Virus record (IMG/VR): IMGVR_UViG_3300037420_001273
Direction: 5' to 3' (one strand)
DNA length: 64,000 nucleotides
Origin: a virus
Below the pieces are notes generated by a model, which was given only the letters and a program-made list of their open reading frames with translations, made no database searches and was not told where the DNA came from. Shown piece by piece: positions 6,308 through 60,925 of the stretch. Made by a program: the position numbers and the translations under genes. Positions within the stretch are counted from its first letter, which is position 1; each line of letters begins with the position of its first letter.

Positions 6308-7060
6308 TTAGCGGCGGGCCGTGCGCGTTTGCGCTTTCGCCTTCGGCGCCGCGGTGAAGCCGCTCACGTCGGGCTCGGCCATCAGCAGCTTGCGCGCCTC
6401 GTCCTGCCGGCTAAGGTGCTGCTCGAGGTTCTCGTTCGGCTGCGGGTTGCCGAAGCGCAGCGTCGCGTAGTCGGCGTTGTCGTCGAACGTGACCGTGGTG
6501 ACCACGCCGACCGGCGGCACTTGCAGCGAGCTGGCCAGCGAGCGCACGTAGGCGTCGTAGTTCTTGATGCCGGTGGGCGAGACCTTGAGCAGCCAGATCG
6601 GCGTGTCGTCGGTCGCATCGGCCGGCAGCACAGCGAGCACGCGCGTGTTCTTGCACGCCTTGCCGGCGCCGTTCGAGCCGAACTCGTTCATCGGGCAGCT
6701 CTTGCAGTCGGTGGACTGCTTGACCGGGCTGTTGTCGCTGGGCACGAGCGACTGCGGGTTGGTGCCGAGCGCGAAGCACGCCGGCGGCGTGATGTTCTTC
6801 GGATCGAACGTGCCTTCGTAGAAGAAGTTCGCCGAGACGAAGTCGACGATCACAGCCTCGAGCTGCTGAGTCTTGTTGCCGTCCGGCAGCTTCAGCTCCT
6901 TGGTGTTGAGCACCTGGATGTTGATGCCCGTCGCCGGCGCAACCCGGCTGTTCATTTCTTCGACCTGCTTGCGCAGCTGTTCCTGGATGCTCACGATCGC
7001 GCCGGACTTGCGCGTCGCGACGGCGGTGCTGGTAGCGGTCTTCTTGGCGGCAGTGGCCAT
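6308..7060 (-). CDS. replication-module protein, possible ssDNA-binding/annealing protein
   Basis: 250 aa, placed near the polymerase. Cys cluster DCKSCPMNEFGSNGAGKAC. The function is a positional guess only. Confidence 0.45.
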   Translation of the reverse strand: MATAAKKTATSTAVATRKSGAIVSIQEQLRKQVEEMNSRVAPATGINIQVLNTKELKLPDGNKTQQLEAVIVDFVSANFFYEGTFDPKNITPPACFALGTNPQSLVPSDNSPVKQSTDCKSCPMNEFGSNGAGKACKNTRVLAVLPADATDDTPIWLLKVSPTGIKNYDAYVRSLASSLQVPPVGVVTTVTFDDNADYATLRFGNPQPNENLEQHLSRQDEARKLLMAEPDVSGFTAAPKAKAQTRTARR

Positions 7061-7070
7061 GTCTTTCCTT

Positions 7071-7496
7071 TCAGTTCGAACGGAGGTTCAGCTTCTTGCG
7101 AGAGAAGCTCTCGGCGCCAGGCACCTTCTTGCCTTGCTCCCAGAGTTCACGGAACGCCGGATCGCTGGGCCGGCGTTGGAGGAGGTGCCAGTACTTGTGC
7201 TTCTGGATGTACGCGTACAGCGCGTCCCAGTCGGTGACGGTGGCGACGATCGTGCTCGTGACCGAGACGCTGGCTTTCTTGCCAGAGCCTTTGTCCGAGT
7301 TTTCGGCCTCGAGCTTGGCGAGCAGCTGCTGCTCGATCTCGGAGTACTTGGTCTCGATCTCGGAGACCTGGGCCTCGAGCGCTCGCTTGCGCTCACGTAG
7401 TTCGTGGAGCTCGTCGACCATGCCGCCGATCGTGCCGACCAGTCGCAGCTTGGTGGCGTGCGCGATGGCGGCGTCTTTGATTGCTTGTCTTGCCAT
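7071..7496 (-). CDS. coiled-coil protein
   Basis: 141 aa. First gene after a motif-bearing gap; no SD upstream of the ATG. Confidence 0.55.
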   Translation of the reverse strand: MARQAIKDAAIAHATKLRLVGTIGGMVDELHELRERKRALEAQVSEIETKYSEIEQQLLAKLEAENSDKGSGKKASVSVTSTIVATVTDWDALYAYIQKHKYWHLLQRRPSDPAFRELWEQGKKVPGAESFSRKKLNLRSN

Positions 7497-10939: not shown

Positions 10940-12417
10940 GCAGCATCCTTGAGATCGAACTGCGACGTAAGACTTGCGAACAAGTCAAGGAGCGTGGTCA
11001 TGCGTTCGTTTTTGCGCATCAAGATGTCGTAGTACACGCGCTGGTCGATCCGGCAGTCGCCGAGCACGACGATCGTCTCGGTCTTCTCCGTCTGGCCGAT
11101 GCGGTGCTGGCGCTTGTTGCCTTGCTTCCACAGCTCGAGGTCCGCCGTCGGCGAGGGCCAGATCGTAGCCGTGCCCTTGGTCAACGTCAGACCGTGCGCC
11201 GCGCTCTTCGGGTGCGCGAACATGACGCGGTAGCGGCCCATCTGGTAGGCCAGCACCATCATGTCCCGCTCCTTGTCGTTCGTCGCTCCGTCGAGCACGC
11301 AATACGTCAGCCCGCGGCTCTCAGCCTCAGCGACCATCAGGTCACGCTGGTGCTGCCAGAGGAAGAACACGAGACTGTGCTTGCGCTGCTCGACCATGTC
11401 GAGCACGAGCTCGTAACGGCTGCTGTCGATGACATGGTAGTTGCCGTCGCTGTCGTAGACAGCGCCTGAGGCGATCTGCAGCAGCTTGCCGGCCAGCACC
11501 GCAGCGTTGAGTGCCGTGAGCGGCACCACGCTGGCTTTCTTGCCAGTGCTCAGGTACTGCTTCATCGCCGCCGGCGAGGTGTCAGTGATCAGCGCAATCT
11601 GGTCGCGCTCCATCTGTTCGTAGACGCGCCGCATCTTCTGCGGCATCTCGAAGTCGACCACATAGTGGTGGTTCGGCGGGATGTCGACGCAGTCCTCGAA
11701 CTTGTGCCGCACGACGATGTCACTGAGCAAGCCGAACACGGCTTCCTCGGCGCCTTCCTTGTCGACCCAGTCGATCATGTGCTGCTGTCGGCCGACTTGC
11801 TCAGGCACGCAGACGCTGTTGCGGAACGCATAGAAGCTAGGTCCGAGACGCTGGCCGCCGTCGAGAATGGCAACCTGGTGCCAGACGTCCGTGATCGAGC
11901 GTCCGTTGGGTGTGCCGGTGAGGCCGGAGCGGTGCTTGAAGTACTTTGCGATCTTCCTGAGCGCCTTGCTGCGCTGGCTGGTGTGGTGCTTGAATGCCGT
12001 GATCTCGTCGACGATCAGCTCGCTGAACTTCTTGAAGAACGCCGGCCGCTGATCTGCGACCCACTTCACTCCGTCCGTGTTCACGATGTAGACATCAGCA
12101 TCGACGGCGAACGCGTGAGCACGGTTGTCAGCGCGGGCGATTGACACGCGCATGTCCGGGGCGAACTTCTTAAAGTCGTTGGCCCATGCGCTCTTGAGCA
12201 GCGAGCGTGGTGCTACCACTAGCGCGCAGCCACCGCCTTTGCGCCGGCGCTCGGCGAACGCCGTGACCCGCACGAACGTTTTGCCGGTGCCGGGGTCGCT
12301 GCAGTCATAGACGACCTCAGTCGTCTTGTCGTGCTTGAGGCTCACCTTCTGGTGCGCCATTGCTTGAGATTTCATGAAGGTGTTTGCGTAGTGCTTCGCG
12401 AGAAGCGGGCGGAACAT
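10936..12417 (-). CDS. SNF2/DEAD-like superfamily 2 helicase
   Basis: Walker A DPGTGKT, DExx box LIVDEITAFKH, motif VI QHRIGQT. The start may be ATG 12375 or 12360 instead. Confidence 0.8.
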   Translation of the reverse strand: MFRPLLAKHYANTFMKSQAMAHQKVSLKHDKTTEVVYDCSDPGTGKTFVRVTAFAERRRKGGGCALVVAPRSLLKSAWANDFKKFAPDMRVSIARADNRAHAFAVDADVYIVNTDGVKWVADQRPAFFKKFSELIVDEITAFKHHTSQRSKALRKIAKYFKHRSGLTGTPNGRSITDVWHQVAILDGGQRLGPSFYAFRNSVCVPEQVGRQQHMIDWVDKEGAEEAVFGLLSDIVVRHKFEDCVDIPPNHHYVVDFEMPQKMRRVYEQMERDQIALITDTSPAAMKQYLSTGKKASVVPLTALNAAVLAGKLLQIASGAVYDSDGNYHVIDSSRYELVLDMVEQRKHSLVFFLWQHQRDLMVAEAESRGLTYCVLDGATNDKERDMMVLAYQMGRYRVMFAHPKSAAHGLTLTKGTATIWPSPTADLELWKQGNKRQHRIGQTEKTETIVVLGDCRIDQRVYYDILMRKNERMTTLLDLFASLTSQFDLKDAA

Positions 12418-12577
12418 CTGTGCGCAGCAGCCAGCGTGTGATCTCGGTGATCTTCTCTTCGCGTGTATGCTTGTTCAGCTCGGCAGTCCAGAACTGGATT
12501 CGTTCGTGCCTTTTCTCTGCCAAAGGACTCAACTCATCCCACGTGGTGATCATCTCAATGCACAAACGGACGTTCAT
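12317..12577 (-). CDS. hypothetical protein
   Basis: Track ORF, 86 aa. Confidence 0.45.
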   Translation of the reverse strand: MNVRLCIEMITTWDELSPLAEKRHERIQFWTAELNKHTREEKITEITRWLLRTDVPPASREALRKHLHEISSNGAPEGEPQARQDD

Positions 12578-14872: not shown

Positions 14873-15993
14873 TCAGAGCTCCAGACGGACCGTTTCACCC
14901 CACGGGCCTTGCGTGTCGGTAGTAGCGCACCAGAGCACCGGGAACTGCACCGGCGCGTCGGGGAACGCGCCGTACATGTCGGTCAGGTAGATGAGCGCCT
15001 TCGGCTCGATGCCGTGCTTTTCGAGCCAGCGGAACGGGGGGCGGAAGTCAGTGCCGCCACCACCATGCGGCTTGACGAAGAACTCGTCCTCGGGGAGGAA
15101 CTCGTCGACGTGGTTCACCGCAGCGTCGCAGTACATCACGATCGTCTTGCGCGGACGCACCTTGCTGCGGATGTCTTCGATCTCGGTCGCGAACGCAGTC
15201 AGCGTGGCCTGGTCGATCGAGCCGGAGGTGTCGATGACGGTGACGAGCTCACCCATCGACTCACTGTACATGCCGGGCAGGATGAGGCCGTGCGCGAGCA
15301 TGCGCCGGTTCGGACGCGACCAGCTGTAGTCGTCTTTCGTGCGCTCGGTGACGAAGCGACGCAGCACGGCGCGCCAGTCGACCTTGCTCGCGGTGAGCTC
15401 ATCGACGAACCGCTGCAGCGACGCAGGCAGTTTGCCTGCAGACTTGGCTGCATGCGCGGCCTGCATGACAGCGTCACGCCACTCGTCCCGTTGCGCCTCG
15501 GCCTCGTCTTCGTCGCCGCTGCCGTCCAGGACGACGTCCTGGCCTCTGTCGCCCTCGAGTTGGTCGGGCAGCAGGTTGTAGATCTGGTCCGCGGTGAAGT
15601 TCTTCCACGCCGGGTTCGGCTGGACCCAGTGCTTACCGAGCTGGAAGCCGGCGTCGACGATCATGTCATTGACGACATAGTCGGCGGCGATGTTCCACTT
15701 CGCCGCATTGCGCGAGCCACGGCGCGTCATGTGATCGAATACGCAGTGGCCGACCTCGTGCGCGACGGCGCTGCGCAGCAACGGGATCTCGGTCTCCATG
15801 ACGAACGTCTCGTCGTAGTAGATCGTGCTGCCGTCAACGGCGAGCGTCGGCTTCAGGCCGCGCGACTTGAACATCGCGTGCGCTTCGGGCGGCATCGGCG
15901 TGAGCTTCAACCGAAGCGCCAGGGCGCCGAAGAACGGTTGCTCGATGAGCAGCGTGGCTCGGGCCTTGACCAGGCGCTTCAAGACTTGTTCGT

Positions 15994-15997
<4 letters not shown>
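14873..15997 (-). CDS. putative metallopeptidase (HExxH) + von Willebrand A (VWA) domain protein
   Basis: 374 aa. AHEVGHCVFDH in the N-terminal half; MIDAS DxSxS (VIDTSGSID) in the C-terminal half. DUF2201/VWA-like layout, the usual partner of MoxR ATPases. Confidence 0.8.
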
Positions 15998-18702: not shown

Positions 18703-20139
18703 TTACACCTCGAGGCCGGCGTTGCGCAGCTTGGTCAACAGCTGCTCGGTCTCGGCGGAGGCGGTGCGCCGCACCAGCTCTTGCATCGTCGAGTCGACGG
18801 TCGGCTCGATGTCGCTGAGCTCGCTCTGCTCCTTGAGCAGGTTCAGCTGCATGCGCATGGTCTTCGCCGCCTCGACGAGCGCCTGCTCGCTCAGCTGCTT
18901 GACCTTCTCGCCCGGCTGCTGCAGGCGCAGCTGCGCCAGCTTCGCACGTTTGACCACCTCGGCGATGACCGCCGGGATGTGGCCCGCGAGCAGCTCACCG
19001 GCCTTGGTCAGGTCGGTGGCCTGGTCGATCGACTCGGCGCCGTAGTGGCGCAGCAGCTTCTCGACCGCCTTCGCGTCCGGCGGCGTGACGTCGATCACGG
19101 CATCCAGGCGACCCGGGCGCAGCATCGCGGCGTTGATCTTCTTGAGCTCGTTCGTCGTCAAGACGACGATGAGATTCGCGCTCTTCGTGTCGATGCCGTC
19201 GATGATGTTGAGGATGTCGTCCATCGCGACGTCACGCTCGCCGCTGAGCGCGCGGTCGATGTCTTCGCAGAAGATCACGCAGGCCGGGCTCTGGTATTGC
19301 TTGGCGAACTCGATTGCGTCGGGCAGCTCGTCGGCGCGCGGTACATACAGGTACGTGATGCCGTGGTCGACGGCCAGCTTCGAGGCCACGCGGGCGGCCA
19401 GCGTCTTGCCGGTGCCGTAGGTGCCGCCCAGCAGCACGCCGCGCTTGATCGTCAGGCCGTTGTCGATGCAGTCCTGCACGCGCTCGATCGGCGTGAACAG
19501 GCTGGTCTCGACGGCAGCCATGACGTCGTCGCTGTAGATCAGCTGCTCGCGGCGGATGTCGGACGTGTCCATGAACTTCGGCTCGGGCATCTCCAGCGCC
19601 TGGCCGTTGTCGTCCTTGAAGCGCATCTTGATCGCCTGACCACGGTACAGGCTGAACTCGGCGGCTTCGCGACGCAACTCCTCGAAGATCTTCTGGATCG
19701 TCGCCTCGTCCTTGCGCTTGACGTTGGCCGACAGGTGGAACACGAACCGCGCGCCCTTCTTGCCGACGCCGGTTTGCAGCAGGCCGTCGACCTTGGGCAG
19801 GCTGAACGAGCCCCAGGGGACCTGGATCTTGGAGGTCGGGCCGGTGTCGATCGAGATCAGCTGCGGCGGCTGCGGGCCGAAGAAGCCCGGGGTGGCGGTT
19901 GCGGCTGACCAGCCGAACTTGCGCGTCAGCACGCGATCCAGCAGGTACGCACCGTCCCAGGGGAAGACGTCGAACGTCTCCTGGATGCCGACGGCTTCCT
20001 CGAGGAACTGCTGCCGGCGCTTGAGCAGCTCGATCGCGTCGGTGATCGGCATGCCCTCGGGGAGGACCATCTTCTCGCCGTGGTAGACGATGTCGGCCAC
20101 ATGGGCCTGCGGGCCCGCATCTTTCAGGTTCTTGCTCAC
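18703..20139 (-). CDS. classical AAA ATPase (FtsH/Cdc48-clade core) with unique N-terminal domain
   Basis: 478 aa, GTG start. Walker A GGTYGTGKT, Walker B VIFCEDID, second region of homology NAAMLRPGRLD. Confidence 0.85.
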   Translation of the reverse strand: MSKNLKDAGPQAHVADIVYHGEKMVLPEGMPITDAIELLKRRQQFLEEAVGIQETFDVFPWDGAYLLDRVLTRKFGWSAATATPGFFGPQPPQLISIDTGPTSKIQVPWGSFSLPKVDGLLQTGVGKKGARFVFHLSANVKRKDEATIQKIFEELRREAAEFSLYRGQAIKMRFKDDNGQALEMPEPKFMDTSDIRREQLIYSDDVMAAVETSLFTPIERVQDCIDNGLTIKRGVLLGGTYGTGKTLAARVASKLAVDHGITYLYVPRADELPDAIEFAKQYQSPACVIFCEDIDRALSGERDVAMDDILNIIDGIDTKSANLIVVLTTNELKKINAAMLRPGRLDAVIDVTPPDAKAVEKLLRHYGAESIDQATDLTKAGELLAGHIPAVIAEVVKRAKLAQLRLQQPGEKVKQLSEQALVEAAKTMRMQLNLLKEQSELSDIEPTVDSTMQELVRRTASAETEQLLTKLRNAGLEV

Positions 20140-20306
20140 GTAGGTTTCCTTCTTTCGGTCGATTGCAGGAGTGCCTTCTTGACCAGCTCGACCTGGTACC
20201 GTTCAAGAAGTCTTTGCGCGAATGCTTCGCCTTTGGCTGCGCGTTCTTGGGCTATGAAGTCATACGCCTCGCGTGCCTTGAACCAAGCGTCTATGTCGAA
20301 TCTCAC
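20136..20306 (-). CDS. small helical protein (56 aa, below track cut-off)
   Basis: My translation from GTG 20306 (VRFDIDAWFKAREAYDFIAQERAAKGEAFAQRLLERYQVELVKK...). GAAGG SD; GTGA overlap with the AAA gene start. Confidence 0.4.
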   Translation of the reverse strand: MRFDIDAWFKAREAYDFIAQERAAKGEAFAQRLLERYQVELVKKALLQSTERRKPT

Positions 20307-20320: not shown

Positions 20321-21349
20321 TCAGGTCAACACCTCGTGGTTCTTCACAGCCCAGTTCGTGAACGCCTTCGACTTGCTGATGCTCTCGTCGCGACGCACGC
20401 TGTCGCGCACGAACACGACCTGGAACTCCTCGGGCAGGCGCGAGGTGTACTGCATCAGAATGTCGAAGTTGTCCGGGGTGGCGCGGATGGCCAGGCTCGT
20501 GGTCAGCGCGTAGAGCACCGCCGGCTTGTCGCGGCCGGGCACCGGCGCTTCCTTCGGCTTGAGCATGATCACGTCCGGGTGGGGCAGCTCGCGGTACACG
20601 TTCAGGAACGTGAGGAACTCACCCGCAGCGCCTTCGCCGACGGTGCCCTTGAGCACCTCGCGCTCGACCGCCGGCGGCAGGTGGTTCTTGATGATGTCGT
20701 TGACGAACATCCAGCTGCGCGGGCTCGGAAACGCGCGCGGGTTGCTCGCAGCGTCGAATGAGTGCAACAGGTTCGACTTGAAGCGCAAGAACGCGAGTAC
20801 CTCCTCGTGGATGCCGTTCTTGAGCGCCCAGTCGCTGAAGTCGTCCAGGTTCACCTCGAAGTCGAGGTGGATGAACCGGTTCGCCAGCGCGGCGGGCATG
20901 GCGTGTACGACCGAGCGGTCACTGGCACGGTTGCCGGCGGCGATGATCGACCAGCCGTCGGGCAGGACGTACTCGCCGATGCGGCGGTCGAGGATGAGCT
21001 GGTAGCCCGCGGCCTGCACCGACGGCGGAGCGCTGTTCATCTCGTCGAGGAACAGCACGCCTTCGGACTCGTTCGGCACTTCCTTCGATCCCTTCTTGAC
21101 CGTCATCGGGGGCAGGAAGTCCGGCGGCAGCCAGCTCATGACCTTCTTGACGGTGTCGGGCACGGGGAAGCCCTTCAGGTCGACCGGGTCGAGCAGGCTC
21201 ATGCGCACGTCGCGGAACTCCTTGCACTGGCTGTCGGCGACTTGGCGAGCGACAGCGGACTTGCCGACGCCGGGCGGGCCCCAGATGAAGACGGGGCGCT
21301 TCTTCTCGATGGCGACGTTGAGGGCCTTGGCGATGTCAGACGGTTTCAT
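20321..21349 (-). CDS. MoxR-type (AAA_5, CbbQ/NorQ-like) AAA+ ATPase
   Basis: 342 aa. Walker A WGPPGVGKS, Walker B VLFLDEMN. Confidence 0.85.
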   Translation of the reverse strand: MKPSDIAKALNVAIEKKRPVFIWGPPGVGKSAVARQVADSQCKEFRDVRMSLLDPVDLKGFPVPDTVKKVMSWLPPDFLPPMTVKKGSKEVPNESEGVLFLDEMNSAPPSVQAAGYQLILDRRIGEYVLPDGWSIIAAGNRASDRSVVHAMPAALANRFIHLDFEVNLDDFSDWALKNGIHEEVLAFLRFKSNLLHSFDAASNPRAFPSPRSWMFVNDIIKNHLPPAVEREVLKGTVGEGAAGEFLTFLNVYRELPHPDVIMLKPKEAPVPGRDKPAVLYALTTSLAIRATPDNFDILMQYTSRLPEEFQVVFVRDSVRRDESISKSKAFTNWAVKNHEVLT

Positions 21350-21383: not shown

Positions 21384-21632
21384 TCAGTCTTTTATGAGCT
21401 GCAGGTATGCGATCGCAGCTTCCTTGGTGTCGAAGCTTGGGTTGCTGATGCGTTCGTTTAGCGCTGGTATGTCCGAAACGATCCACCAGCGGTTGTCGTC
21501 AATGAAGCGCACAACGACAACAACGATTCCCTTGATATTCCACTCTCCTTCGGTGTGGAGAAGCACGTCGTAGTGCCTGCCGAAAGGGCCGTAACTCAAC
21601 GGCGGATTGCGTATCTGCTGTTCGATCTTCAT
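21384..21632 (-). CDS. small paralogue family member P1 (WWI box + C-terminal FDT-EAA box)
   Basis: ...DNRWWIVSD...NPSFDTKEAAIAYLQLIKD. Confidence 0.6.
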   Translation of the reverse strand: MKIEQQIRNPPLSYGPFGRHYDVLLHTEGEWNIKGIVVVVVRFIDDNRWWIVSDIPALNERISNPSFDTKEAAIAYLQLIKD

Positions 21633-21865
21633 GCCAGCAACCTCAGTGCGGCGTAGGCTGCTTCAGCGGTATCGAACGGGTCGATGTCTTCGAAGCGCTT
21701 CTCGTCGTGGGAATCGTCGGGAACAATCCACCATTTATTGTCGGTTGCGAGTTGAGTAACGACGCAGTCGATGCCTTTGATCTGCGTGTTGAAGCTGTTG
21801 TCGTAGAACAGGTATACAACCGTGGTGCCGCGATGCGGTTCGCAGGCCGGTTTGAGCTTGAGCAC
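21629..21865 (-). CDS. small paralogue family member P2
   Basis: ...DNKWWIVPDD...IDPFDTAEAAYAALRLLA. ATGA overlap with P1. Confidence 0.6.
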   Translation of the reverse strand: MLKLKPACEPHRGTTVVYLFYDNSFNTQIKGIDCVVTQLATDNKWWIVPDDSHDEKRFEDIDPFDTAEAAYAALRLLA

Positions 21866-21866
21866 C

Positions 21867-22022
21867 TTAGACCCCGAGACGAGTCTTCAGCGAGGCCAGC
21901 TCGATGGCCTTACGCTCGGCGTACTTCGGGTCTTTGGCCGCCTTGGCCTCGTCGATCGTGAAACGCTCGAGGGCGTGGCGGCGGCGTGCTTGGTGTGCTT
22001 GGGAGAGGGGTGCCTTCTTCAT
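21867..22022 (-). CDS. small basic protein (51 aa)
   Basis: ATG 22022 with a GGAG SD (MKKAPLSQAHQARRRHALERFTIDEAKAAKDPKYAERK...). The track ORF 21867..22100 extends into the motif-bearing gap. Confidence 0.45.
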   Translation of the reverse strand: MKKAPLSQAHQARRRHALERFTIDEAKAAKDPKYAERKAIELASLKTRLGV

Positions 22023-22041
22023 GGCCTTGTAGGCTCCAAAG

Positions 22042-22067
22042 GTTAGATCGAACGAAGAGATTAGATC
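22042..22067. promoter_or_regulatory. TTAGATCGAACGAAGA / TTAGATC element (18-bp phase)
   Basis: GTTAGATCGAACGAAGAGATTAGATC lies upstream of ATG 22022. Confidence 0.6.
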
Positions 22068-22100
22068 ATGCGACGAAGCGCGTGGTCTACTGGTTTTCAC

Positions 22101-22340
22101 TCACTGGCGTAGCGTGCGTGCAACTTCTTGCGCAAGGTGATCTCGCGCTGCAGCGATGTAGAGGCGCATGGCAGTGATCGTGTAGTACTGCAGATACGGA
22201 AACTCGCTGCGATAGAAATGTTGAGGGCAGAGGCTCCGCATACGCCGGCGTGTGCGTCGGTTGAGCAGCAACGTGATCGTCGGCGGCTTAGCTCGGTCGC
22301 ACCTGGCTTCGAGCGTGTCGAGGAACTCGTGGTCAGTCAT
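22101..22340 (-). CDS. hypothetical protein
   Basis: 79 aa from ATG 22340 (MTDHEFLDTLEARCDRAK...). ATGA overlap with P3. Confidence 0.5.
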   Translation of the reverse strand: MTDHEFLDTLEARCDRAKPPTITLLLNRRTRRRMRSLCPQHFYRSEFPYLQYYTITAMRLYIAAARDHLAQEVARTLRQ

Positions 22341-22564
22341 TTGCGCAGACGTCCCCACGCGAGAGCTTCAGCAGCACTGTCGAACGTCTTCACGACGTCG
22401 TTGCTCAGGAGGTAGCGTCCGATCCACTCGGCAGCTTCTTCCTGCGTGTCGAATCCAGGTGATGGATCGTTCCAGAAAGGCATCCACCAGCGACGGTAAT
22501 GCGGGTCGAACCTGCCTGATGGCAGTTGAACGATGCGCACACGCGTACGGAAGGGGTTTTTCAT
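22337..22564 (-). CDS. small paralogue family member P3 (two FDT/FDS-EA boxes)
   Basis: 75 aa from ATG 22564: ...RRWWMPFWNDPSPGFDTQEEAAEWIGRYL...KTFDSAAEALAWGRLRK. Confidence 0.55.
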   Translation of the reverse strand: MKNPFRTRVRIVQLPSGRFDPHYRRWWMPFWNDPSPGFDTQEEAAEWIGRYLLSNDVVKTFDSAAEALAWGRLRK

Positions 22565-22749
22565 TTCTTCACCGGCGCTTGATGCTTCGCCCATTCTTCG
22601 AGCTGCTCTGCCGTCATCTCCTTGGGGCAGTACTCGAGCATGAGCGCATCGATCCTGGCTTGAAGAGCTTGCGCGTCTTCGTAGCGCACGTAACGGCCGT
22701 CTTCACGAACGACCATCGCGACATTGGGCTCGGGGTTGAATCGAATCAT
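22561..22749 (-). CDS. hypothetical protein
   Basis: 62 aa from ATG 22749 (MIRFNPEPNVAMVVREDGRYVRYEDAQALQ...). ATGA overlaps at both ends. Confidence 0.5.
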   Translation of the reverse strand: MIRFNPEPNVAMVVREDGRYVRYEDAQALQARIDALMLEYCPKEMTAEQLEEWAKHQAPVKK

Positions 22750-22961
22750 TGCGTCAAGACCTTGTAGGCGTATGCAGCTTCGGCGGTGTCGAAGGGGCCG
22801 TAGTAACTGGCGGGTGGTGGGGCGGCGTTGTAGACCCAATACTTGCTGGTGCGGTATTCACGAACGACGCCCCAACTGTTTTCAGCATCTGCGACCCATA
22901 ATTGGTCGTACCACATGCCCCACCACGAAAGATTCGTGGATTTGAGTGTCTCGGGCTTCAT
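22746..22961 (-). CDS. small paralogue family member P4
   Basis: 71 aa from ATG 22961: ...SKYWVYNAAPPPASYYGPFDTAEAAYAYKVLTQ. Confidence 0.6.
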   Translation of the reverse strand: MKPETLKSTNLSWWGMWYDQLWVADAENSWGVVREYRTSKYWVYNAAPPPASYYGPFDTAEAAYAYKVLTQ

Positions 22962-23230
22962 TCCTTGAGCAACAGCAGCGCTGTTTCCGCGGCTTCGAGT
23001 GTGTCGTACGGGCCGACGTTGTCGAACTCCGCGTCTTCGTCGTGTGGTGTGATCCACCACTTGTCGTCGTCGAGGAACTGGCCGATGCCTACGCTGACGC
23101 CTTTGACAACTGGTGCGGAAGGTTTAGAGCCGCTACCGTACCAGTGGATGTATTTGCGTCGTGTAGGTATATGCACGAACGACACGTCGTACATGGGCTT
23201 CTCGACGTGGTGAGGCAGGAAATTGCTCAT
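22958..23230 (-). CDS. small paralogue family member P5
   Basis: 90 aa from ATG 23230: ...DDDKWWITPHDEDAEFDNVGPYDTLEAAETALLLLKE. Confidence 0.6.
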   Translation of the reverse strand: MSNFLPHHVEKPMYDVSFVHIPTRRKYIHWYGSGSKPSAPVVKGVSVGIGQFLDDDKWWITPHDEDAEFDNVGPYDTLEAAETALLLLKE

Positions 23231-23451
23231 GACGTTAGCACCAGTACAACGTACGCAGCTTCGAACGTGTCGAAGGGACCGTTGACTACACCAACTTTGC
23301 GGAGTGTGTTGCGCACCCAAAACTTGTGGTTCGTGTCTTCCCAGATACGCCAGTGGTTAGACGGTTCTTTTATCCACCAATGCAGTATTTGGAAGCCGTA
23401 GCACGCGTTTATATCACCTTGTGTTGGTTGAAATGGACCTTTGAGCTTCAT
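23227..23451 (-). CDS. small paralogue family member P6
   Basis: 74 aa: ...NHKFWVRNTLRKVGVVNGPFDTFEAAYVVLVLTS. Confidence 0.6.
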   Translation of the reverse strand: MKLKGPFQPTQGDINACYGFQILHWWIKEPSNHWRIWEDTNHKFWVRNTLRKVGVVNGPFDTFEAAYVVLVLTS

Positions 23452-23456
23452 GCCTT

Positions 23457-23702
23457 TCAGTCTTTCATGAGCACGACGGCGGTGTGCGCGGCTTCGATGC
23501 TCGTGTACGGACCATAGCGCGACGGATTCTCGAACTCACACGCTTCGATCCAGAACTCACCGTTCTTGTACTCGGCGATAAGTACCTCAACGCCCTTTAT
23601 GGACCATTCGCTGTCGTTGCCGAACGGAGTAGCTGACCAATATCGCCTGATGCTTTGTTCTCGGCCGTTGTAGTTCACCGGCGGAAACGTGTGGAGCTTC
23701 AC
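23457..23702 (-). CDS. small paralogue family member P7
   Basis: 81 aa: ...KNGEFWIEACEFENPSRYGPYTSIEAAHTAVVLMKD. Confidence 0.6.
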   Translation of the reverse strand: MKLHTFPPVNYNGREQSIRRYWSATPFGNDSEWSIKGVEVLIAEYKNGEFWIEACEFENPSRYGPYTSIEAAHTAVVLMKD

Positions 23703-23708
23703 GGGATG

Positions 23709-23935
23709 TCAGTCCTTGAGCAGCTGGACGACAACATGAGCCTCTTTGAGCGTGTCGTAGGGACCGTACTCGAATGAGTTGGACATGTCTTGGTATGGGA
23801 CGATGAAGAACTTGCCCCTGTGCTCGAGGCCATGTCTCCTTTTATGAACCAGCTACCTATGTCAGGTATCCAAATGTCTTTGTACTCTCTGTTGCGTGCG
23901 GTTTTGGCGATCCAATGAACTCGGCAGAGCTTCAT
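23709..23935 (-). pseudogene. small paralogue family member P8, split by a -1 frame change at an A4 run
   Basis: Frame A from ATG 23935 gives MKLCRVHWIAKTARNREYKDIWIPDIGSWFIK. The -1 frame continues RRHGLEHRGKFFIVPYQDMSNSFEYGPYDTLKEAHVVVQLLKD* (stop 23711..23709). The junction is at TTTT 23840..23843. Confidence 0.5.
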
Positions 23936-26310
23936 CCCTTCGCTCCTACAGCTTTGAGCTCAGGCTTGCCGGTCGGTGCGAACAAGCGCTTGAAGCGGGG
24001 CCACTGCGTGAGGTCGCGCCACTGCACCTTCAAGCCGTAGACGGGCTCGCCGTCGACGCGTACGCGCTCGGTGGTGATGCGATGATGCTTGACGAAGCTG
24101 GTGAATTTGTTCGGGCTGTCGGGGATCTTGCCGACGGTGTACTCGAAGATGGCACGCAGCTCGTCGCGAGCGATATTGCAGCGGCCGTCGTTCATGTCCG
24201 TGCGCTCGAGCAGGCTCTTGATCACGTTCTTGTAGTCCTCGACCTTCGCGATCGAGCTGGCGCTGCCGAGGTAGCGGCTGTCCGTCGGCAGCTGGTCGAT
24301 GAAGAACTCCATGTCGCCCTTGAGCAGCGCGTTCGCGACGCTGTCGGCTGAGGACTCGGTCAGGTCCATCAATGTGTCACGGTCGGCGTTTTGCAGAACG
24401 TTGAAGACCTTCGCGCGGTCGACCTTGAGTGCGAGCAGGAAGTCGTGGAACGGCTGCAGCTCGCGCTCGATCGTGGCCAGGTCTTTCTCGGTCAGCACGA
24501 TCTTGTTCGGCTGGTACTTCGCGACGTTGAAGCGTCGATCATCCTTGGTCACGCGCACGGGTGCTGAGGCGTTCGAGCAAAAGATCCACGCGGTGTAGTT
24601 GCGCACCAGGCGAGCAGTGGCATGCATGCGGCGCACCGGGATGAACTCATCGGTGATGTACATGCGCAGGTCCGCCATGGCTCCGCGCTCGTTCGACAGT
24701 GCGTTGGTCTCGACCTCATCGACGGTGATCAGCAGGTTGTTCTCGATGAAGTCGTTGAACTTCTCGTCGAGCTGCTTCATGCGGATGACGGTGGAGTGCT
24801 GCAGGCCGAAGAGCGGGCGCAGGATCTTCGCGACCAGCGTGCCCTTACCTGTGCCGGGGATGCCGTGAAAGACCCAGGCGGTGAGCGGACGATCGCGTTC
24901 CTGCAGCACGTAGGCCAGCCAGTTGACGAAATGGTTGTACGAGTCCGTGTCGTTGCCGCACACGTGCTCGATGACCTTGCGGATCGTCTTCGGCATATGA
25001 GCGATAGGCTTGGCCTGCGCTTTCATGAAGGAGCTCAGCTGGAACGTGTTGATGACGCGGTTGTCGATGTCCACGCGTACGCTGTCGTGCGGGTCGAACA
25101 CAAGGCGCCATTCGGGGATCACGCCGTCGGGCAGCTGTATGCCGTTGGCTTTGGCGAAGTCCATCAGGACCTTGGAGCTCTTGGTTGGTTCGAGCTCGAG
25201 CTCGTCGTTGACCGAATCGTAAGTGCCGCGCCAGTAACGGTCGGTAGCTGGATCGATGAACGCGAGCTTGAGTACGCCCTGGGAGTCCGCCTTCACCGGC
25301 TGGTGGTGGAGCTGCTCCCAGTACTCAGGTAGCAGCTCCTTGGTCAGATAGATCGGCTCGCCCTTGAAGTTGAAGATGAACTCGGGGTTGTTCTCGGGGT
25401 GGTAGTACGCCCAGGAGTCACCGCCATTGAGATTGAAGTAGACGAAGCCGCGTTCTTGCTTGATCTCGGTGACGGAGCAGACGTCGGGCTTGACCAACAC
25501 CTCCATGCCGCTGTGCATCTTGTACTGCGTCTTGCGCTTGGGCAGTCCGTCGGTGGCGCGCAGCTCGTCGATGCGCTTGTTGATGGACTCGCGGTTCTTG
25601 GCGACAGTCGGGACAGCGGTGATGGACAAGCGTTCCTTGTCCTTGCGCACGAGCGTGATGCGCGGCTGGTTCTTTAGCGGGTCTTTCACGCCCTTGAGCA
25701 CCGGCGAGGCGATGTAGATCAGCTTGTCGTTCTGGCTTGCGCTGGTGTCCAGCGGCCAGTGGATCGAGTTGCCGGTCTTGGTCAGCGTCATCGACTCACG
25801 CAGCAGCGGCGTGGAGAAGTTCAGGCCGATGAGCCACTGCTTGAGCTGCGGCGCAGGCATTGGCTTGTCGAGCAGCATGAATACGTGCGCGCGCAGCTGC
25901 TTGTTCTCGAGTCCGTAGCTGGCGGACCATTGGACGATGTAGGAGACGTCGTTCAGGCCGAGCACGAACAGAACGTCGTCGACGGTGACGGTCGCTGTCT
26001 TGCCGTCCACGGTGGTGGTGTCGGGCAGTCCGTCGATGTCCAGGCAGATCCACTCGGTGGGCTCGTTGCTGTCCGTGGTGCCGGCACGCGACTCGTTGAC
26101 GAGGGTGCGAGCCAGGTGGCCTTTGAGCAGGCAGTGGTTGAGCTTGGCGTGGTGCTTGAGCACAGCTTCGAAGTCGCGCAGGTCGCGCACGTTCGCTTCG
26201 TGGCTGGTGACTTCGTAGACGTGTGGGTAGGGGGTCTTCTTGAGCGTTCCCTGCGCAAGCTCGTAGGTCTTGGTCAGGGGCACTGTGGCTTCGAGGAAGT
26301 GCAGCTTCAT
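23932..26310 (-). CDS. primase-helicase (SF3, D5/P4-type NTPase with large N-terminal presumed primase domain)
   Basis: 792 aa. Walker A VFHGIPGTGKGT, Walker B LLITVDEVE. N-terminal primase motifs not verified by eye. No SD upstream of the ATG. Confidence 0.8.
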   Translation of the reverse strand: MKLHFLEATVPLTKTYELAQGTLKKTPYPHVYEVTSHEANVRDLRDFEAVLKHHAKLNHCLLKGHLARTLVNESRAGTTDSNEPTEWICLDIDGLPDTTTVDGKTATVTVDDVLFVLGLNDVSYIVQWSASYGLENKQLRAHVFMLLDKPMPAPQLKQWLIGLNFSTPLLRESMTLTKTGNSIHWPLDTSASQNDKLIYIASPVLKGVKDPLKNQPRITLVRKDKERLSITAVPTVAKNRESINKRIDELRATDGLPKRKTQYKMHSGMEVLVKPDVCSVTEIKQERGFVYFNLNGGDSWAYYHPENNPEFIFNFKGEPIYLTKELLPEYWEQLHHQPVKADSQGVLKLAFIDPATDRYWRGTYDSVNDELELEPTKSSKVLMDFAKANGIQLPDGVIPEWRLVFDPHDSVRVDIDNRVINTFQLSSFMKAQAKPIAHMPKTIRKVIEHVCGNDTDSYNHFVNWLAYVLQERDRPLTAWVFHGIPGTGKGTLVAKILRPLFGLQHSTVIRMKQLDEKFNDFIENNLLITVDEVETNALSNERGAMADLRMYITDEFIPVRRMHATARLVRNYTAWIFCSNASAPVRVTKDDRRFNVAKYQPNKIVLTEKDLATIERELQPFHDFLLALKVDRAKVFNVLQNADRDTLMDLTESSADSVANALLKGDMEFFIDQLPTDSRYLGSASSIAKVEDYKNVIKSLLERTDMNDGRCNIARDELRAIFEYTVGKIPDSPNKFTSFVKHHRITTERVRVDGEPVYGLKVQWRDLTQWPRFKRLFAPTGKPELKAVGAKG

Positions 26311-27466: not shown

Positions 27467-27556
27467 GATGAAGTTCTCCAGGTAAGTTGCGTTGAATGCC
27501 GGTTACGTCGAACGACTCCATCACTCAGGACGCTCGTCGTTCTTTCCGGCGGTATT

Positions 27557-27736
27557 TCACCCGTGGTTGAGCGTAAGCAAGGCGAGGGGCATGCCCAGAT
27601 CCTCTTCGTGCTCGGCGACTTCGTCGAACACGGGATCGTCGGACTCGGTGATGGGTTCTAGCTCGAGTTCATCGCGTGGTTGCTCCAGTAGATCGAACGA
27701 AGAGATGCGAACGCGAACGACAGCTACGCGGGCCAT
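27557..27736 (-). CDS. possible small acidic protein (59 aa, below track cut-off)
   Basis: My translation: MARVAVVRVRISSFDLLEQPRDELELEPITESDDPVFDEVAEHEEDLGMPLALLTLNHG. The 3' two-thirds is GC3-rich. The 5' part coincides with a TAGATCGAACGAAGA element, so the start is doubtful. Confidence 0.3.
   Translation of the reverse strand: MARVAVVRVRISSFDLLEQPRDELELEPITESDDPVFDEVAEHEEDLGMPLALLTLNHG
27689..27703. promoter_or_regulatory. TAGATCGAACGAAGA element
   Basis: Third exact copy of the 15-mer. Confidence 0.5.
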
Positions 27737-27855
27737 GCCAGCAGTACTCCCGTCGCTGCGAAGGCGGCGACGCCGCCGATCGTGTACAACGCGTCAGCGA
27801 GAGTGAAGCTGAGCGTGTGCACACGTTTGCCGATGATGAGGATGTGAATCTTCAT
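27724..27855 (-). CDS. small membrane protein (43 aa)
   Basis: ATG 27855 within track ORF 27724..27969: MKIHILIIGKRVHTLSFTLADALYTIGGVAAFAATGVLLAWPA. TGATG overlap with the upstream stop. Confidence 0.4.
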   Translation of the reverse strand: MKIHILIIGKRVHTLSFTLADALYTIGGVAAFAATGVLLAWPA

Positions 27856-28082
27856 CACTGCAACCTGAACTTCTTCAGGACTTCGTTGGCCTGCTCGGTG
27901 TTCTCGATCTTCGGCTCGATGTACGTGCCACCGAGTTGCTGCCGAGCGAAGGCTTGGGCGATGCGGCATTGCACTTCCAGGTCGACCATGAAGGTCAGAA
28001 AGATGAACTGCTCTTCGGGCAGGCCGTGCAAGAACGCGCGCAGCGCTTCGACGTCCTTAGGGTTGCTGGGTTGAAGGTCCAT
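27855..28082 (-). CDS. hypothetical protein
   Basis: Track ORF, 75 aa. Confidence 0.5.
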   Translation of the reverse strand: MDLQPSNPKDVEALRAFLHGLPEEQFIFLTFMVDLEVQCRIAQAFARQQLGGTYIEPKIENTEQANEVLKKFRLQ

Positions 28083-28094
28083 GTGAGCTCTCCT

Positions 28095-28376
28095 CTAGAG
28101 CTTGTGGCTGATGCTGATCCAGCCAGGTTGGTACTTGCCGCGCTCGATGTAGCCGAACGCTTTGCGGCCGAGGCCGATGCACGCAGAGCAGGTCAGGGCG
28201 CTGATCGCCGCGACCATCATTCCGCTGTACGTGCCGTAGTGAAGGAAGTTCACCAGCACGAACACGGCGATATCGAGCGCAAGCGGGTGACTGAGCATCC
28301 ACATGCGTCGCTTCCACGACAGCTTGCAGAACATCGTGATCAGGCCGATCGCGACGATGAGACCCATCTCGATCAT
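28095..28376 (-). CDS. membrane protein (about 3 TM)
   Basis: 93 aa from ATG 28376 (MIEMGLIVAIGLITMFCKLSWKRRMWMLSHPLALDIAVFVLVNFL...). ATGA overlap. Confidence 0.5.
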   Translation of the reverse strand: MIEMGLIVAIGLITMFCKLSWKRRMWMLSHPLALDIAVFVLVNFLHYGTYSGMMVAAISALTCSACIGLGRKAFGYIERGKYQPGWISISHKL

Positions 28377-28786
28377 GCGAACCTCCTTCGCGTCCACGTG
28401 GTGAACGCGTGCCAGTGCTGGTCGATGCGCCGGCCGACGATGTAGTCGAACGCGATGCTCGATGCCTGGATCGATGCATAGACTGCGAGTACGATGCCGA
28501 CGCACCACAGCACCATCGAGAACACGCTTGAAGCGCTGAGCGTTATGGCGCTGAGCGCGATCGCTTCGGTCATCCAGCTGACCGAATAGCCCACGCCCAG
28601 GCCGAACAGCATCGATGCGATGACCGCGGTGATGGCGCGGCTCCAGTGCGGCACGTTCAGATGCGTGAACAGCCGCTTCTGCGCTTCGAGGTACTCGCGC
28701 CACAGGCGTGTTTCCTCGATGTCGTTGCTCAGTTGCTCGGTCGTGATCGTTGCCTTCTTCGACGTACGTGGCTTCTTCGTTTCCAT
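28373..28786 (-). CDS. membrane protein (about 3 TM) with charged N-terminus
   Basis: Track ORF, 137 aa. Hydrophobic segments AITAVIASMLFGLGVGYSV, AIALSAITLSASSVFSMVLWCVGIVLAVYA. Confidence 0.55.
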   Translation of the reverse strand: METKKPRTSKKATITTEQLSNDIEETRLWREYLEAQKRLFTHLNVPHWSRAITAVIASMLFGLGVGYSVSWMTEAIALSAITLSASSVFSMVLWCVGIVLAVYASIQASSIAFDYIVGRRIDQHWHAFTTWTRRRFA

Positions 28787-47424: not shown

Positions 47425-49719
47425 GTGCTGCTGTTCCATCAGAACCTGCTGAACGGCAATCGCTACGTGAATCATCACGTGGCGGGCACGTGGCTGCCCG
47501 GACTGCGCGAACGCGCGCAGATCATGTTCTTCAGCGCGAACCAGGCGAGCGCGGCGCTCACTGGGTCGAGCGCCACTACGACCGCCGGAACTGCTGCGCC
47601 CACGATCTCAGTCGCGCTTACCGGTACGACGGCCTCCACTGGCCAGGGCTCGTTCCCGCTCGTCTATGGCATCGGTACCCGTGTGGTCAATCCGCACGTG
47701 GCCGGGCGCTGGGTACCTGATGTCGCGGAGCGCGCGAAGCTGCTCCTGTTCTCGGCCACCCTGAGCAACGTTGCGCTCGCTGGCTCGAGTGCTACCGCCT
47801 CCGCGGGGTCCGCCACGGCGGCAATCAGCACGGCTCTGACTGGCGTCGGTGCAACCTCAGCAGTCGGCGCGATCACGTCGTCGTCGACTGTCGCCCTGAC
47901 CGGCTCCGCGTCGACGGCCTCCGCGGGCACGATGGCGCCGACGCACACGGCTGCGCTGTCCGGGAGCGCCGCCACTGGCGCCCAAGGCAGCGTGTCGGCC
48001 AGCGGCAGCGGCTCAGCCTCGCTCAGCGGCTCGGCTGCTACGGCCTCCACCGGTACGCCGGCGGTGACGCACACCGTGGCCCTGACGGGCGCTTCAGCCA
48101 CGTCTGCGCAAGGCTCCGTCATCCCCGGGCTGCAGCTCACCGGTGCCCAGGCAACCGGCGCTGCGGGCACGCTCGGCGTCGCCGCTGCGATCCCGCTCAC
48201 CGGCGCCTCGAACACTGCTGCGGCGGGCGCGCTGTCCGCCGGCGTGACGCTCGCGCTGAACGGGCAGGGCGCCGTGATCGCTCAGGGCCAGTTCTCGGCG
48301 GTGTTCGATGCCTATGGCGCACGGGCGGTCAACCGCCACGTTGCGGGCACCTGGTCGCCGGTGATGCACCAGCGAGCCGTGGTGATGATGACCGGCGGCT
48401 CCCTGGTCGGTCAGCAGGCGAGTGCAGCCGCCGGGGCGATGACGACTTCGCGCACGATCGCGCTCACCGGCGCCGCCGCTACGGCGCAGGCTGGGGCGCT
48501 CTCGGCGAACCAACCTGCCGGCGTCAACCCAACCGTCACCGGCTGGTGGACCGGCGCTGTCGTCAAGCGTTTCTCGTTGCTGGCGCCCGGCATCGAGCTG
48601 ATCGGTGTGTCGGCCGCGGCGTCCACCGGTGTTCTCTCGCCTGTGCGCAGCATCGCGCTCACCGGCTCGATTGCCACGGCCGCAGCTGGTTCGCTCGCCG
48701 CGACGATCCGCGTGGCGCCGAGCGGTTTGTCCGCTACGGGCGCACAGGGTTCTGTTGGGCCGGCTCAGCCTCTGGTCGGCAGCAGCCTGACTGGCGCCAC
48801 AGGTACGCTGAACCTCGTCAACTCGCCTGCGCTGAGCAACGCGCTCGCCAGCACCTCCGCCGGCAACCTCGGCGAGCTGGTGTCTGCATTCGCGCTCACC
48901 GGTGGCTCTGCTACGTCGCTCACCGGTACTGCCGCGCCGGCTATCACGATCGCGCTCACCGGCGCCGCCGCTACGGCCGCCGGCGGTACGCTGTCTGCAT
49001 CCAAATCCCTCAACGGCGCTGCCGCCACGGCTGCGGCCGGCACGCTCGGCGTGACGACCAGCATCGCGCTGACCGGCTCGGCTGCTGCGGGCGCGCAGGG
49101 CTCGGTTGGTACGAGCTTCGCCGGCAACGTGAGCCTGACCGGCTCTGCTGCGACGGCCGCGGCTGGCGTTCCTGGCGTCTCAGTCACGATCGCGCTGTCT
49201 GGCGCCGGTGCAGCCGCCGCGGTGGGCTCCGTCGGCCAGTCGCGCGCTGTCAGCACCAGCGGCGCGGCGGCCTCGAGCGTCGCAGGCAGCGTCGCTGCGG
49301 TCATCGCGAAGGCGCTCGCCGGCGCGCAGGCTGCGATGCAGGCCGGTGCCGTCAATATCCAGGGCGACTCCACGATCGCGCTCACTGGTACCGGCGCAGC
49401 GGCTGCGCAAGGGTCTCTCAGCTCGAGCTTCGCGGTCGGCGTTACCGGCGCGCAACTGGTCGCGGCGCAGGGCGCTGTCGACAAGGTGCTCGGCGCCGCG
49501 CTGTACGGCGCGTCCTTGAGCGCTCAGGCGGGTACCTTCATCGTCACCGGCGGCGTCATCGGCAGCGACGGCGGCGTGACCTCGCCCATCTACGCCCGCA
49601 CGTTCATTGACCAGCGCACCGCCCAGACGTTTATCGACGATCGCTTCGCTCACACCACAGACGGCGATACGAGTGCATCGACGTCTGACTCTGACATCGC
49701 TGCTTACACCCGGGAGTGA
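47425..49719 (+). CDS. repeat-rich Ala/Gly/Thr/Ser fibre-like protein
   Basis: 764 aa, GTG start. About 30 copies of a 19-21-aa unit (xALTGSAATAAAGTLxxxxx), plus four VNxHVAGxWxP...ERAxLLxF-type modules. Confidence 0.65.
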   Translation: MLLFHQNLLNGNRYVNHHVAGTWLPGLRERAQIMFFSANQASAALTGSSATTTAGTAAPTISVALTGTTASTGQGSFPLVYGIGTRVVNPHVAGRWVPDVAERAKLLLFSATLSNVALAGSSATASAGSATAAISTALTGVGATSAVGAITSSSTVALTGSASTASAGTMAPTHTAALSGSAATGAQGSVSASGSGSASLSGSAATASTGTPAVTHTVALTGASATSAQGSVIPGLQLTGAQATGAAGTLGVAAAIPLTGASNTAAAGALSAGVTLALNGQGAVIAQGQFSAVFDAYGARAVNRHVAGTWSPVMHQRAVVMMTGGSLVGQQASAAAGAMTTSRTIALTGAAATAQAGALSANQPAGVNPTVTGWWTGAVVKRFSLLAPGIELIGVSAAASTGVLSPVRSIALTGSIATAAAGSLAATIRVAPSGLSATGAQGSVGPAQPLVGSSLTGATGTLNLVNSPALSNALASTSAGNLGELVSAFALTGGSATSLTGTAAPAITIALTGAAATAAGGTLSASKSLNGAAATAAAGTLGVTTSIALTGSAAAGAQGSVGTSFAGNVSLTGSAATAAAGVPGVSVTIALSGAGAAAAVGSVGQSRAVSTSGAAASSVAGSVAAVIAKALAGAQAAMQAGAVNIQGDSTIALTGTGAAAAQGSLSSSFAVGVTGAQLVAAQGAVDKVLGAALYGASLSAQAGTFIVTGGVIGSDGGVTSPIYARTFIDQRTAQTFIDDRFAHTTDGDTSASTSDSDIAAYTRE
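47570..49500 (+). repeat. intragenic tandem repeats (about 57-63 nt period)
   Basis: Recurrent ATCGCGCTCACCGGC... words. For example, the 29-mer ATCGCGCTCACCGGCGCCGCCGCTACGGC occurs at about 48453 and about 48950. Confidence 0.8.
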
Positions 49720-60916: not shown

Positions 60917-60925
60917 GGAGCGCGC

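Follow-up and report, generated by a model that had tools for sequence, protein, structure and literature searches.

A tandem array of small, diverging paralogous genes in the replication module of an uncultured phage, with a possible host-directed role

We analyzed a 64,000-nucleotide (nt) stretch of viral DNA (IMG/VR record IMGVR_UViG_3300037420_001273; hereafter the window, to which all coordinates refer unless another contig is named) and found in it a tandem array of one small-protein family, located on the minus strand between the genes for a primase-helicase (23932–26310) and a MoxR-like AAA_5 ATPase (20321–21349). The array consists of six intact paralogues (P1, P2, and P4–P7) and one degenerate copy (P8), accompanied by a further small gene (P3) and three unrelated small open reading frames (ORFs). 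The window is a phage genome: its plus strand carries the genes for terminase, portal, and major head protein, and its minus strand those for DNA polymerase, helicase, and primase. The phage appears to be an uncultured, ~70-kilobase (kb) distant relative of Pseudomonas phages KPP25 and phiR18 (genus Kochitakasuvirus), the closest cultured relatives by primase-helicase at only 42% amino acid identity. We tentatively favor the reading that the family members bind host proteins and serve host takeover or counter-defense, a possibility that we rate as appreciable but short of even.

The six intact ORFs encode proteins of 71–90 amino acids (aa), each with an aromatic box followed by a GP[FY]DT-EAA box: P1 (21384–21632, 82 aa), P2 (21629–21865, 78 aa, GTG start, the canonical type), P4 (22746–22961, 71 aa), P5 (22958–23230, 90 aa), P6 (23227–23451, 74 aa), and P7 (23457–23702, 81 aa, GTG start), with P4 and P6 forming a short, Trp-rich subtype. 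Both of the following tests were scored against the complete set of 918 six-frame ORFs (≥40 aa) of the window. The copies are connected by a network of pairwise phmmer matches (P1–P2, E = 1e-8; P2–P5, 2e-10; P4–P6, 5e-8; P5–P7, 5e-6; P4–P7, 2.5e-4), and each is recovered by a hidden Markov model (HMM) built without it, at E values of about 2e-7 to 3e-12 (P1, 8e-11; P2, 1.3e-11; P4, 6e-7; P5, 3e-12; P6, 2e-7; P7, 2e-11). This similarity is far above chance, even though the six copies are mutually only 17%–36% identical (41% for the partial P7–P8 pair). A preliminary description of the locus, made from the letters alone, had placed eight paralogues here, all ending in the same C-terminal box. 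The location, the minus-strand array, and the upstream aromatic box of P1, P2, and P4–P7 are as it described; the count, in contrast, comes to seven, because P8 is not an ORF and has its box in the −1 frame, and P3 carries only a short helix-cap motif and fails the HMM test.

P3 (22337–22564, 75 aa, isoelectric point [pI] 9.8) was considered as a family member and rejected: the leave-one-out HMM gives E = 2.2, hhalign returns a probability of 13.6%–13.7% over 12–14 residues, and the HMM of 79 family sequences does not match it at E ≤ 1. Its overlap with the family is limited to the motif F-D-[TS]-x-x-E-A, which recurs in Achromobacter phage JWF, in an unrelated protein with a score of just 8 bits against the family HMM, so that the box by itself is not diagnostic. 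P3 is nevertheless a real gene under constraint, with a 92% identical ortholog in a sibling strain (see below) and a ratio of non-synonymous to synonymous divergence (dN/dS) of 0.06; that ortholog is the only homolog of P3 found among 5.8 billion proteins.

P8 (23709–23935), the copy next to the primase-helicase gene, had to be followed through a three-frame translation and the HMM coordinates of its two halves. The ATG at 23935 opens an ORF that ends at 23699 and encodes the N-terminal part (MKL...SWFIKG). The C-terminal part (GKFFIVPY...GPYDTLKEAHVVVQLLKD, including GPYDT) is encoded in the −1 frame, open from 23852 to 23709, in which no start codon is usable. The C-terminal half is a significant match to HMMs from which P8 was left out (E = 5e-6 and 2e-7); the N-terminal half, which aligns to columns 1–34 of the A4 profile, does not reach significance by itself. 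Profile columns 35–43 (i.e., the third β-strand of the structural models described below) are spanned by 14 nt, compared with an expected 27, indicating that ~13 nt have been lost from P8, with the central core strand gone and the frame shifted. P8 is thus probably a pseudogene. We also considered that full-length P8 might be made by programmed −1 ribosomal frameshifting. Both frames are open across the junction and both end beside the start of P7, the stop codon of the first (frame A) overlapping that start as GTGA; frame A contains an A-AAA-G stretch that could permit a single-tRNA slip; and the P8 sequence is identical in two further assemblies from other samples. The overlap contains no canonical X-XXY-YYZ slippery heptamer, however, and a frameshifted product would still miss the part of the domain encoded by columns 35–43. 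The three assemblies, moreover, are 100% identical and hence represent the same strain, which excludes a one-off assembly error but does not show evolutionary conservation. We therefore rejected frameshifting as a very improbable explanation. One other contig that reaches the region, L023, ends ~20 nt before the frameshift site.

The family, defined by an alignment (A6) with the signature WWI-x-P / G-P-[FY]-D-T, extends beyond the window. Among 5.8 billion proteins, a word-indexed search detected nothing beyond the window's own proteins and three sibling-strain orthologs. In 1.84 billion cluster representatives, scanned exhaustively with HMMER, 78 sequences matched at E ≤ 1e-3: 2 spurious repeat proteins, 6 of the query's own sequences, and ~70 stand-alone proteins of 54–111 aa. 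The shared pattern is HR[DG]T ... I-[DN]-G-x-x-V-x-V-x-Q-L-x-x-D-x-K-WWI-[IV]-P ... D-[DE] ... D-x-G-P-[FY]-D-T-x-E-x-A ... L, and 79 aligned members were used in the wider scans. Neither these nor the eight window proteins have a match above threshold in Pfam, PHROGs, or NCBIfam, and the family profile finds only chance-level matches among PDB sequences (botrocetin and SH3 domains), which arise from the WWI word. Megablast and tblastn searches of 50,697 genomes of cultured phages and of 72,556 plasmids detected no member; the weak match in phage JWF is the 8-bit one noted above. A strict two-motif DNA pattern, run against genome, viral, and metagenome collections, found the known IMG/VR contig and two chance matches, and found no member in 185,579 species-representative genomes, but it was too strict for a sensitive test, since it missed even the window's own copies. 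As far as these searches reach, the family is known from uncultured phages only, and a literature search found no description of it.

A faint resemblance to DUF2188-type domains had been suggested in the preliminary description, and we considered whether the family belongs, as a divergent branch, to DUF2188 or to a similar catalogued family (DUF1816 or the RNase H1 N-terminal domain, in which a β-strand precedes an F-x-T-x-EEA helix). In these domains, as in the family, an aromatic β-strand leads into a G-P-F-D-T-x-E-A turn and helix N-cap, and there are sub-threshold matches of P4 to DUF1816 (E = 2.3) and of P3 to Cauli_VI (E = 0.17). DUF2188 itself (PF09954), however, matches none of the eight window proteins at E ≤ 10 and none of the 79 members at E ≤ 1; DUF1816 (PF08846) matches P4 only, at 8.7 bits against a gathering threshold of 27, and is absent from the family-wide scan; the motif in question also occurs in the unrelated JWF protein; and the predicted domain of the family, with five strands and one helix, is larger than those of the three catalogued families. 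We consider such an assignment most unlikely. Profile searches, then, do not place the family in a catalogued one; the catalogues searched contain neither the family nor its predicted fold, and what surrounds them, a variable accessory island with an array of paralogous small genes, is of a known kind.

AlphaFold2 models were made of two of the window copies, P2 and P7. The P2 model, from the 79-sequence alignment, is very confident (predicted local distance difference test [pLDDT] 95.6, predicted template modeling [TM] score [pTM] 0.85) and has β-strands at residues 3–11, 14–21, 32–39, 45–49, and 61–64 and a helix at 67–77. The P7 model, from nine sequences, has a pLDDT of 85 and the same order of elements (strands 4–6, 18–23, 38–45, 50–54, and 62–66; helix 69–79), although P7 is only 23% identical to P2. 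Each copy is accordingly predicted to form a compact five-stranded antiparallel β-sheet packed on one C-terminal helix. In Foldseek searches of the PDB, neither model has a significant match (best E = 1.0 for P7 and 1.8 for P2, with leading TM-scores of ~0.4 or lower), and the best match of the P7 model in BFVD has E = 0.2. The top PDB match of P2, AcrIIC2 (E = 1.8, TM-score 0.25, root-mean-square deviation 13 Å), is meaningless. We also considered and rejected an SH3-like β-barrel: ASAP1 SH3 sequences reach only E ~0.04, via a D-x-x-WWI word, and no SH3 domain is among the best Foldseek PDB matches of the two models.

When conservation is mapped onto the model, the conserved residues fall on the WWI-x-P strand, an acidic D/E loop, the G-P-[FY]-D-T turn with its D-T-x-E helix-capping box, and helix residues A70 and L76; strands 1 and 2 are variable except for the HR[DG]T turn. 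This agrees with the earlier observation that the N-terminal halves are diverged and the C-terminal box is conserved, and we infer that the C-terminal half is a structural scaffold and that the N-terminal β-hairpin may form a variable, specificity-bearing surface. The family is acidic, with a median pI of 4.7, a median net charge of −6, and 90% of members below pI 6, which argues against DNA binding.

Comparison with a sibling strain, represented by contigs L004 and L021, gives a measure of how fast the copies diverge. L004 is overall 95% identical to the window in nucleotide sequence. Between the strains, P1, P2, and P4 are 67%, 63%, and 76% identical in amino acid sequence to their orthologs P0009, P0007, and P0008, with non-synonymous divergence (dN) of 0.19, 0.26, and 0.12 and dN/dS of 0.54, 0.38, and 0.45, respectively. 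By comparison, the neighboring MoxR-like and AAA ATPases are 99.7% and 99.8% identical (dN 0.001 and dN/dS 0.01 for both), and two downstream genes are 100% identical (dN 0). The rapid diversification proposed for the array is thus evident in these three genes; the C-terminal part of P5 is 98% identical (dN 0.008, dN/dS 0.14). Changes concentrate in the N-terminal halves, where dN/dS is ~0.75, compared with 0.2–0.3 in the C-terminal halves. At the same time, synonymous divergence (dS) is 0.35–0.67 in P1 and P2 as against 0.07–0.19 in the flanks, and allelic exchange with more distant variants appears as likely as positive selection in place. A diversity-generating retroelement was rejected as the source of the variation: the 110 strain differences in P1 and P2, indels included, involve every one of the bases (A, 40; C, 24; G, 24; T, 22), although no systematic search of the window for a reverse transcriptase was made.

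In relatives of the window phage, the number of copies at the same locus varies widely. L005 (IMG/VR, 68.7 kb), with a primase 57.5% and a MoxR-like protein 70% identical to those of the window, has two copies directly after the primase gene and one weak, distant copy; L013, in which only the C terminus of the primase is available for comparison (46% identity) and MoxR is not covered, has at least four copies directly after the primase gene; L019 (42 kb; primase 54%, MoxR 47% identical) has a single copy just upstream of the MoxR-like gene; and phiR18 (primase 42% identical) has none at the syntenic position. The survey of related phages that had been called for thus gives copy numbers of 0, 1, 2, at least 4, and, in the window, 7 (six intact and one degenerate), and the family has the character of a variable island (i.e., small stand-alone proteins present in some relatives and absent from others). 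The island of L019 between the primase and MoxR genes also contains a Lar-family restriction-alleviation gene (L019 5996–6214; PF14354, E = 4.5e-8, 33.6 bits against a cut-off of 28.6), three genes upstream of the single family member.

Further arrays lie in phages of a very different kind. L006 (guanine–cytosine [GC] content 51%) has five tandem copies and encodes, next to them, a protein that shares ~35% identity with proteins from two jumbo phages, Phosso and Atu_ph07; L010 (GC 41.5%) has four copies; and L018 (GC 45%) has three tandem copies and a divergent fourth. A second contig with the family protein P0081, which is also present in L018, encodes a T4-type Gp23, RtcB, Thg1, and PTH2. 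L006, L010, and L018 are T4-like or jumbo-like contigs, of 41%–51% GC, and the uncultured phages with the family are thus of at least two very different kinds. No member was found at the syntenic positions of Sinorhizobium phage Phosso and Agrobacterium phage Atu_ph07. The divergent last gene of the L018 array (6920–7435) encodes a 171-aa protein in which residues 52–107 match the family weakly (E = 8e-6) and are followed by a ~65-residue unrelated extension; it is the only family member seen with extra sequence. In L017 (IMGVR_UViG_3300044719_000205), a weak, divergent family-like ORF (11989–12504; E = 3e-4; ...HGQWFLV...DIGPVPFEVALALVRLKGT) lies ~6.5 kb downstream of the two-copy array, suggesting that members may also occur singly.

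The setting of the copies in the window and its relatives raises an alternative in which the proteins would serve the phage's own replication or AAA+ machinery (i.e., the primase-helicase, the MoxR-like ATPase, or the AAA ATPase) as accessory subunits or adaptors. In four members of the clade (the window, L005, L013, and L019), copies lie between the primase and MoxR-like genes; they directly follow the primase gene in the first three of these, the first copy overlapping its stop codon as ATGA in the window and in L013, and the single L019 copy abuts the MoxR-like gene; and no promoter or terminator was found between the copies and the primase and ATPase genes. The arrays in the T4-like or jumbo-like contigs, however, lie among runs of small genes of unknown function with no primase or MoxR gene nearby, copy number ranges from 0 to 7 among relatives with none in phiR18, and the copies change ~100 times faster at non-synonymous sites than the enzymes that they would serve (dN 0.12–0.26 versus 0.001). 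We regard a role within this machinery as quite improbable.

P2 is the copy nearest to those of other phages, being 43%–46% identical to copies in L005, L006, and L010. In a neighbor-joining tree, weak owing to the short length of the proteins, P2 clusters with one L005 copy (L005_a) and with copies from the T4-like or jumbo-like contigs, and P4/P6, P5/P7/P8, and three L013 copies each group by lineage. This suggests one widely shared canonical type together with lineage-specific expansions. It might be argued from the same data that only the canonical P2 is functional and that the array is otherwise mostly evolutionary debris, with the remaining copies drifting toward loss: P8 is already degenerate, P2 is the sole window copy that keeps the HRG motif and the one that clusters with the copies of other phages, and constraint is relaxed (dN/dS 0.4–0.75). 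Against this, six copies keep an ORF, translational coupling, and the full scaffold at only 17%–36% mutual identity, which points to long-term maintenance; P1 and P4 have dN/dS values below 1, and P5 is conserved between strains in its C-terminal part; and the model of P7 is confident and has the same strand and helix order as that of P2. We find decay of all copies but P2 a distinctly unlikely account of the array.

We return to the host-directed reading, which is favored because the proteins are small, acidic, and variable, because they are encoded in an accessory island, because a relative carries Lar in the corresponding island, and because there is a precedent for tandem amplification. 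The preliminary description had taken the array, placed in the early/middle region, as the pattern expected of host-takeover or anti-defense effectors. The array does sit in the replication module, and the small size and acidity of most of the proteins, the low-GC variable island, the variation in copy number, and the Lar gene in L019 all fit that pattern. The locus is a variable accessory island in the replication operon and holds a birth-and-death array of one small-protein family. On the host-directed reading, a conserved C-terminal scaffold would carry a variable, specificity-bearing N-terminal β-hairpin. The copies would act as stoichiometric binders of host proteins and, given their acidity, not of DNA; their targets would most plausibly be components of host immunity or other host functions taken over by the phage; and duplication followed by divergence would yield a panel of variants directed at different targets or at different alleles of a target.

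Expansion of a host-antagonist gene in tandem, followed by divergence and contraction, is known from the gene accordions of poxviruses, as in the amplification of K3L; that system, unlike the present array, belongs to a eukaryotic virus, is transient, and has a known antagonist and a known target. Among phages, T-even phages amplify small anti-defense genes in tandem, as with tifA against ToxIN (PMC9391042), and SegB drives amplification of anti-defense loci in the same group (PMC13096335). These cases resemble the array in that small, tandem, multi-copy genes lie in non-essential regions and their copy number is tied to conflict with the host. They are, however, recent, laboratory-selected amplifications, whereas the window copies are old, as judged from their low mutual identity and diverged N-terminal halves, and no homology between TifA and the family was detected. 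Anti-CRISPR (Acr) loci, Lar, Ocr, and ArdA-type inhibitors likewise are small, mostly acidic, stand-alone proteins of variable low-GC islands with a patchy distribution among close relatives; the family differs from these Acr and anti-restriction islands in having no sequence or fold match to them and, in the window, no adjacent Aca-type helix-turn-helix regulator.

Several observations weigh against the host-directed reading. No homology to a known anti-defense or host-takeover protein was found in Pfam, PHROGs, NCBIfam, or the PDB sequences, although the first three hold many Acr and anti-restriction families, and the Pfam and PHROG searches found no known anti-defense gene in the window's own island, Lar being present in one relative only. 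Most of the wider family keeps the HR[DG]T motif, which five of the six intact window copies have lost; the window copies may therefore not all share the ancestral activity. P6, with a pI of 8.9, is the only basic family copy in the window. Finally, dN/dS in P1, P2, and P4 is 0.4–0.5 and not above 1, and P1 and P2 also have a raised dS; this combination could be explained by relaxed constraint or by exchange of alleles, and it does not prove positive selection.

The traits that suggest an arms race do not by themselves name the opponent. Small, acidic, variable, accessory, multi-copy proteins would fit equally well with a role in phage-phage conflict or in phage development (e.g., superinfection exclusion, inhibition of competing mobile elements, or anti-sigma-like regulation), since these traits do not tell arms-race targets apart. 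The sole functional neighbor found, Lar in L019, points instead to evasion of restriction, and we consider a role of this kind unlikely. A more far-reaching form of the host-directed reading is that the family constitutes a new counter-defense or host-takeover superfamily with a fold unseen in solved structures, whose tandem arrays would be a specificity library in which each paralogue neutralizes a different immune protein or allele, the arrays expanding, diverging, and decaying as hosts change and the family moving between unrelated lineages (from ~70 kb KPP25-like to T4-like or jumbo-like phages). This form is conceivable, but we hold it to be rather doubtful.

Newly found inhibitors of bacterial immunity and host machinery come mainly from small accessory proteins of phages, most of which are unrecognizable by sequence. 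With a clean HMM definition, a very confident fold without a solved counterpart, a distribution confined to uncultured phages, tandem arrays, and hypervariability between strains, the family is a well-justified candidate for functional screening, and the array is a natural example of long-term birth and death of a gene family in a phage genome. If it is true that the copies bind different host targets, then counter-defense would be broadened here by duplication and not by the acquisition of unrelated genes.

As to the gene map of the locus, the flanking primase-helicase (792 aa) is matched by Pfam DUF5906 (E = 3e-18) and by phrog_24712 and DNA primase PHROGs, and the MoxR-like ATPase (342 aa) by Pfam AAA_5 (E = 1.7e-7) and phrog_1297 (E = 4e-107). 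The three unrelated small ORFs that had been described as interleaved with the paralogues are present, on the minus strand, and have no Pfam or PHROG match: a basic 51-aa ORF (21867–22022) that is 90% identical in the sibling strain, a basic 79-aa ORF (22101–22340) that is 87.5% identical, and a 62-aa ORF (22561–22749). The last is a mosaic relative to L021 382–642, where the first ~28 residues are near-identical and the C-terminal half is replaced, giving an 86-aa protein. The gene overlaps pointed out earlier occur, as ATGA or GTGA, at 7 of the 11 junctions, and neither a sigma-70-like promoter nor an intrinsic terminator was detected on the minus strand from 20 to 27 kb; together, these observations place the small genes in one long, translationally coupled operon. 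The GC content of the island (21384–23935) is 55.4%, with single family genes at 48%–56%, compared with 61% for the primase gene, 65% for the MoxR-like gene, and 63% for the 70-kb contig.

A few features elsewhere in the window may be recorded. Between the genes for the MoxR-like and AAA ATPases, a minus-strand ORF of 56 aa (20136–20306) differs from its counterpart in the sibling strain by an 11-residue indel and has a dN/dS of 1.26. The replication module also contains, on the minus strand, a gene for a 374-aa HNH endonuclease (14873–15997; phrog_1314, E = 7e-97), which may be a homing-type element. The coding strand switches at ~27500–28600, from replication genes on the minus strand to structural genes on the plus strand, and a divergent promoter or an origin region may lie there. 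In the structural module, a plus-strand ORF of 764 aa (47425–49719) is without a PHROG match at E ≤ 1e-5 and falls in a stretch (48001–50000) of 70.7% GC that is, jointly with 60001–62000 (70.9%), the most GC-rich of the window.

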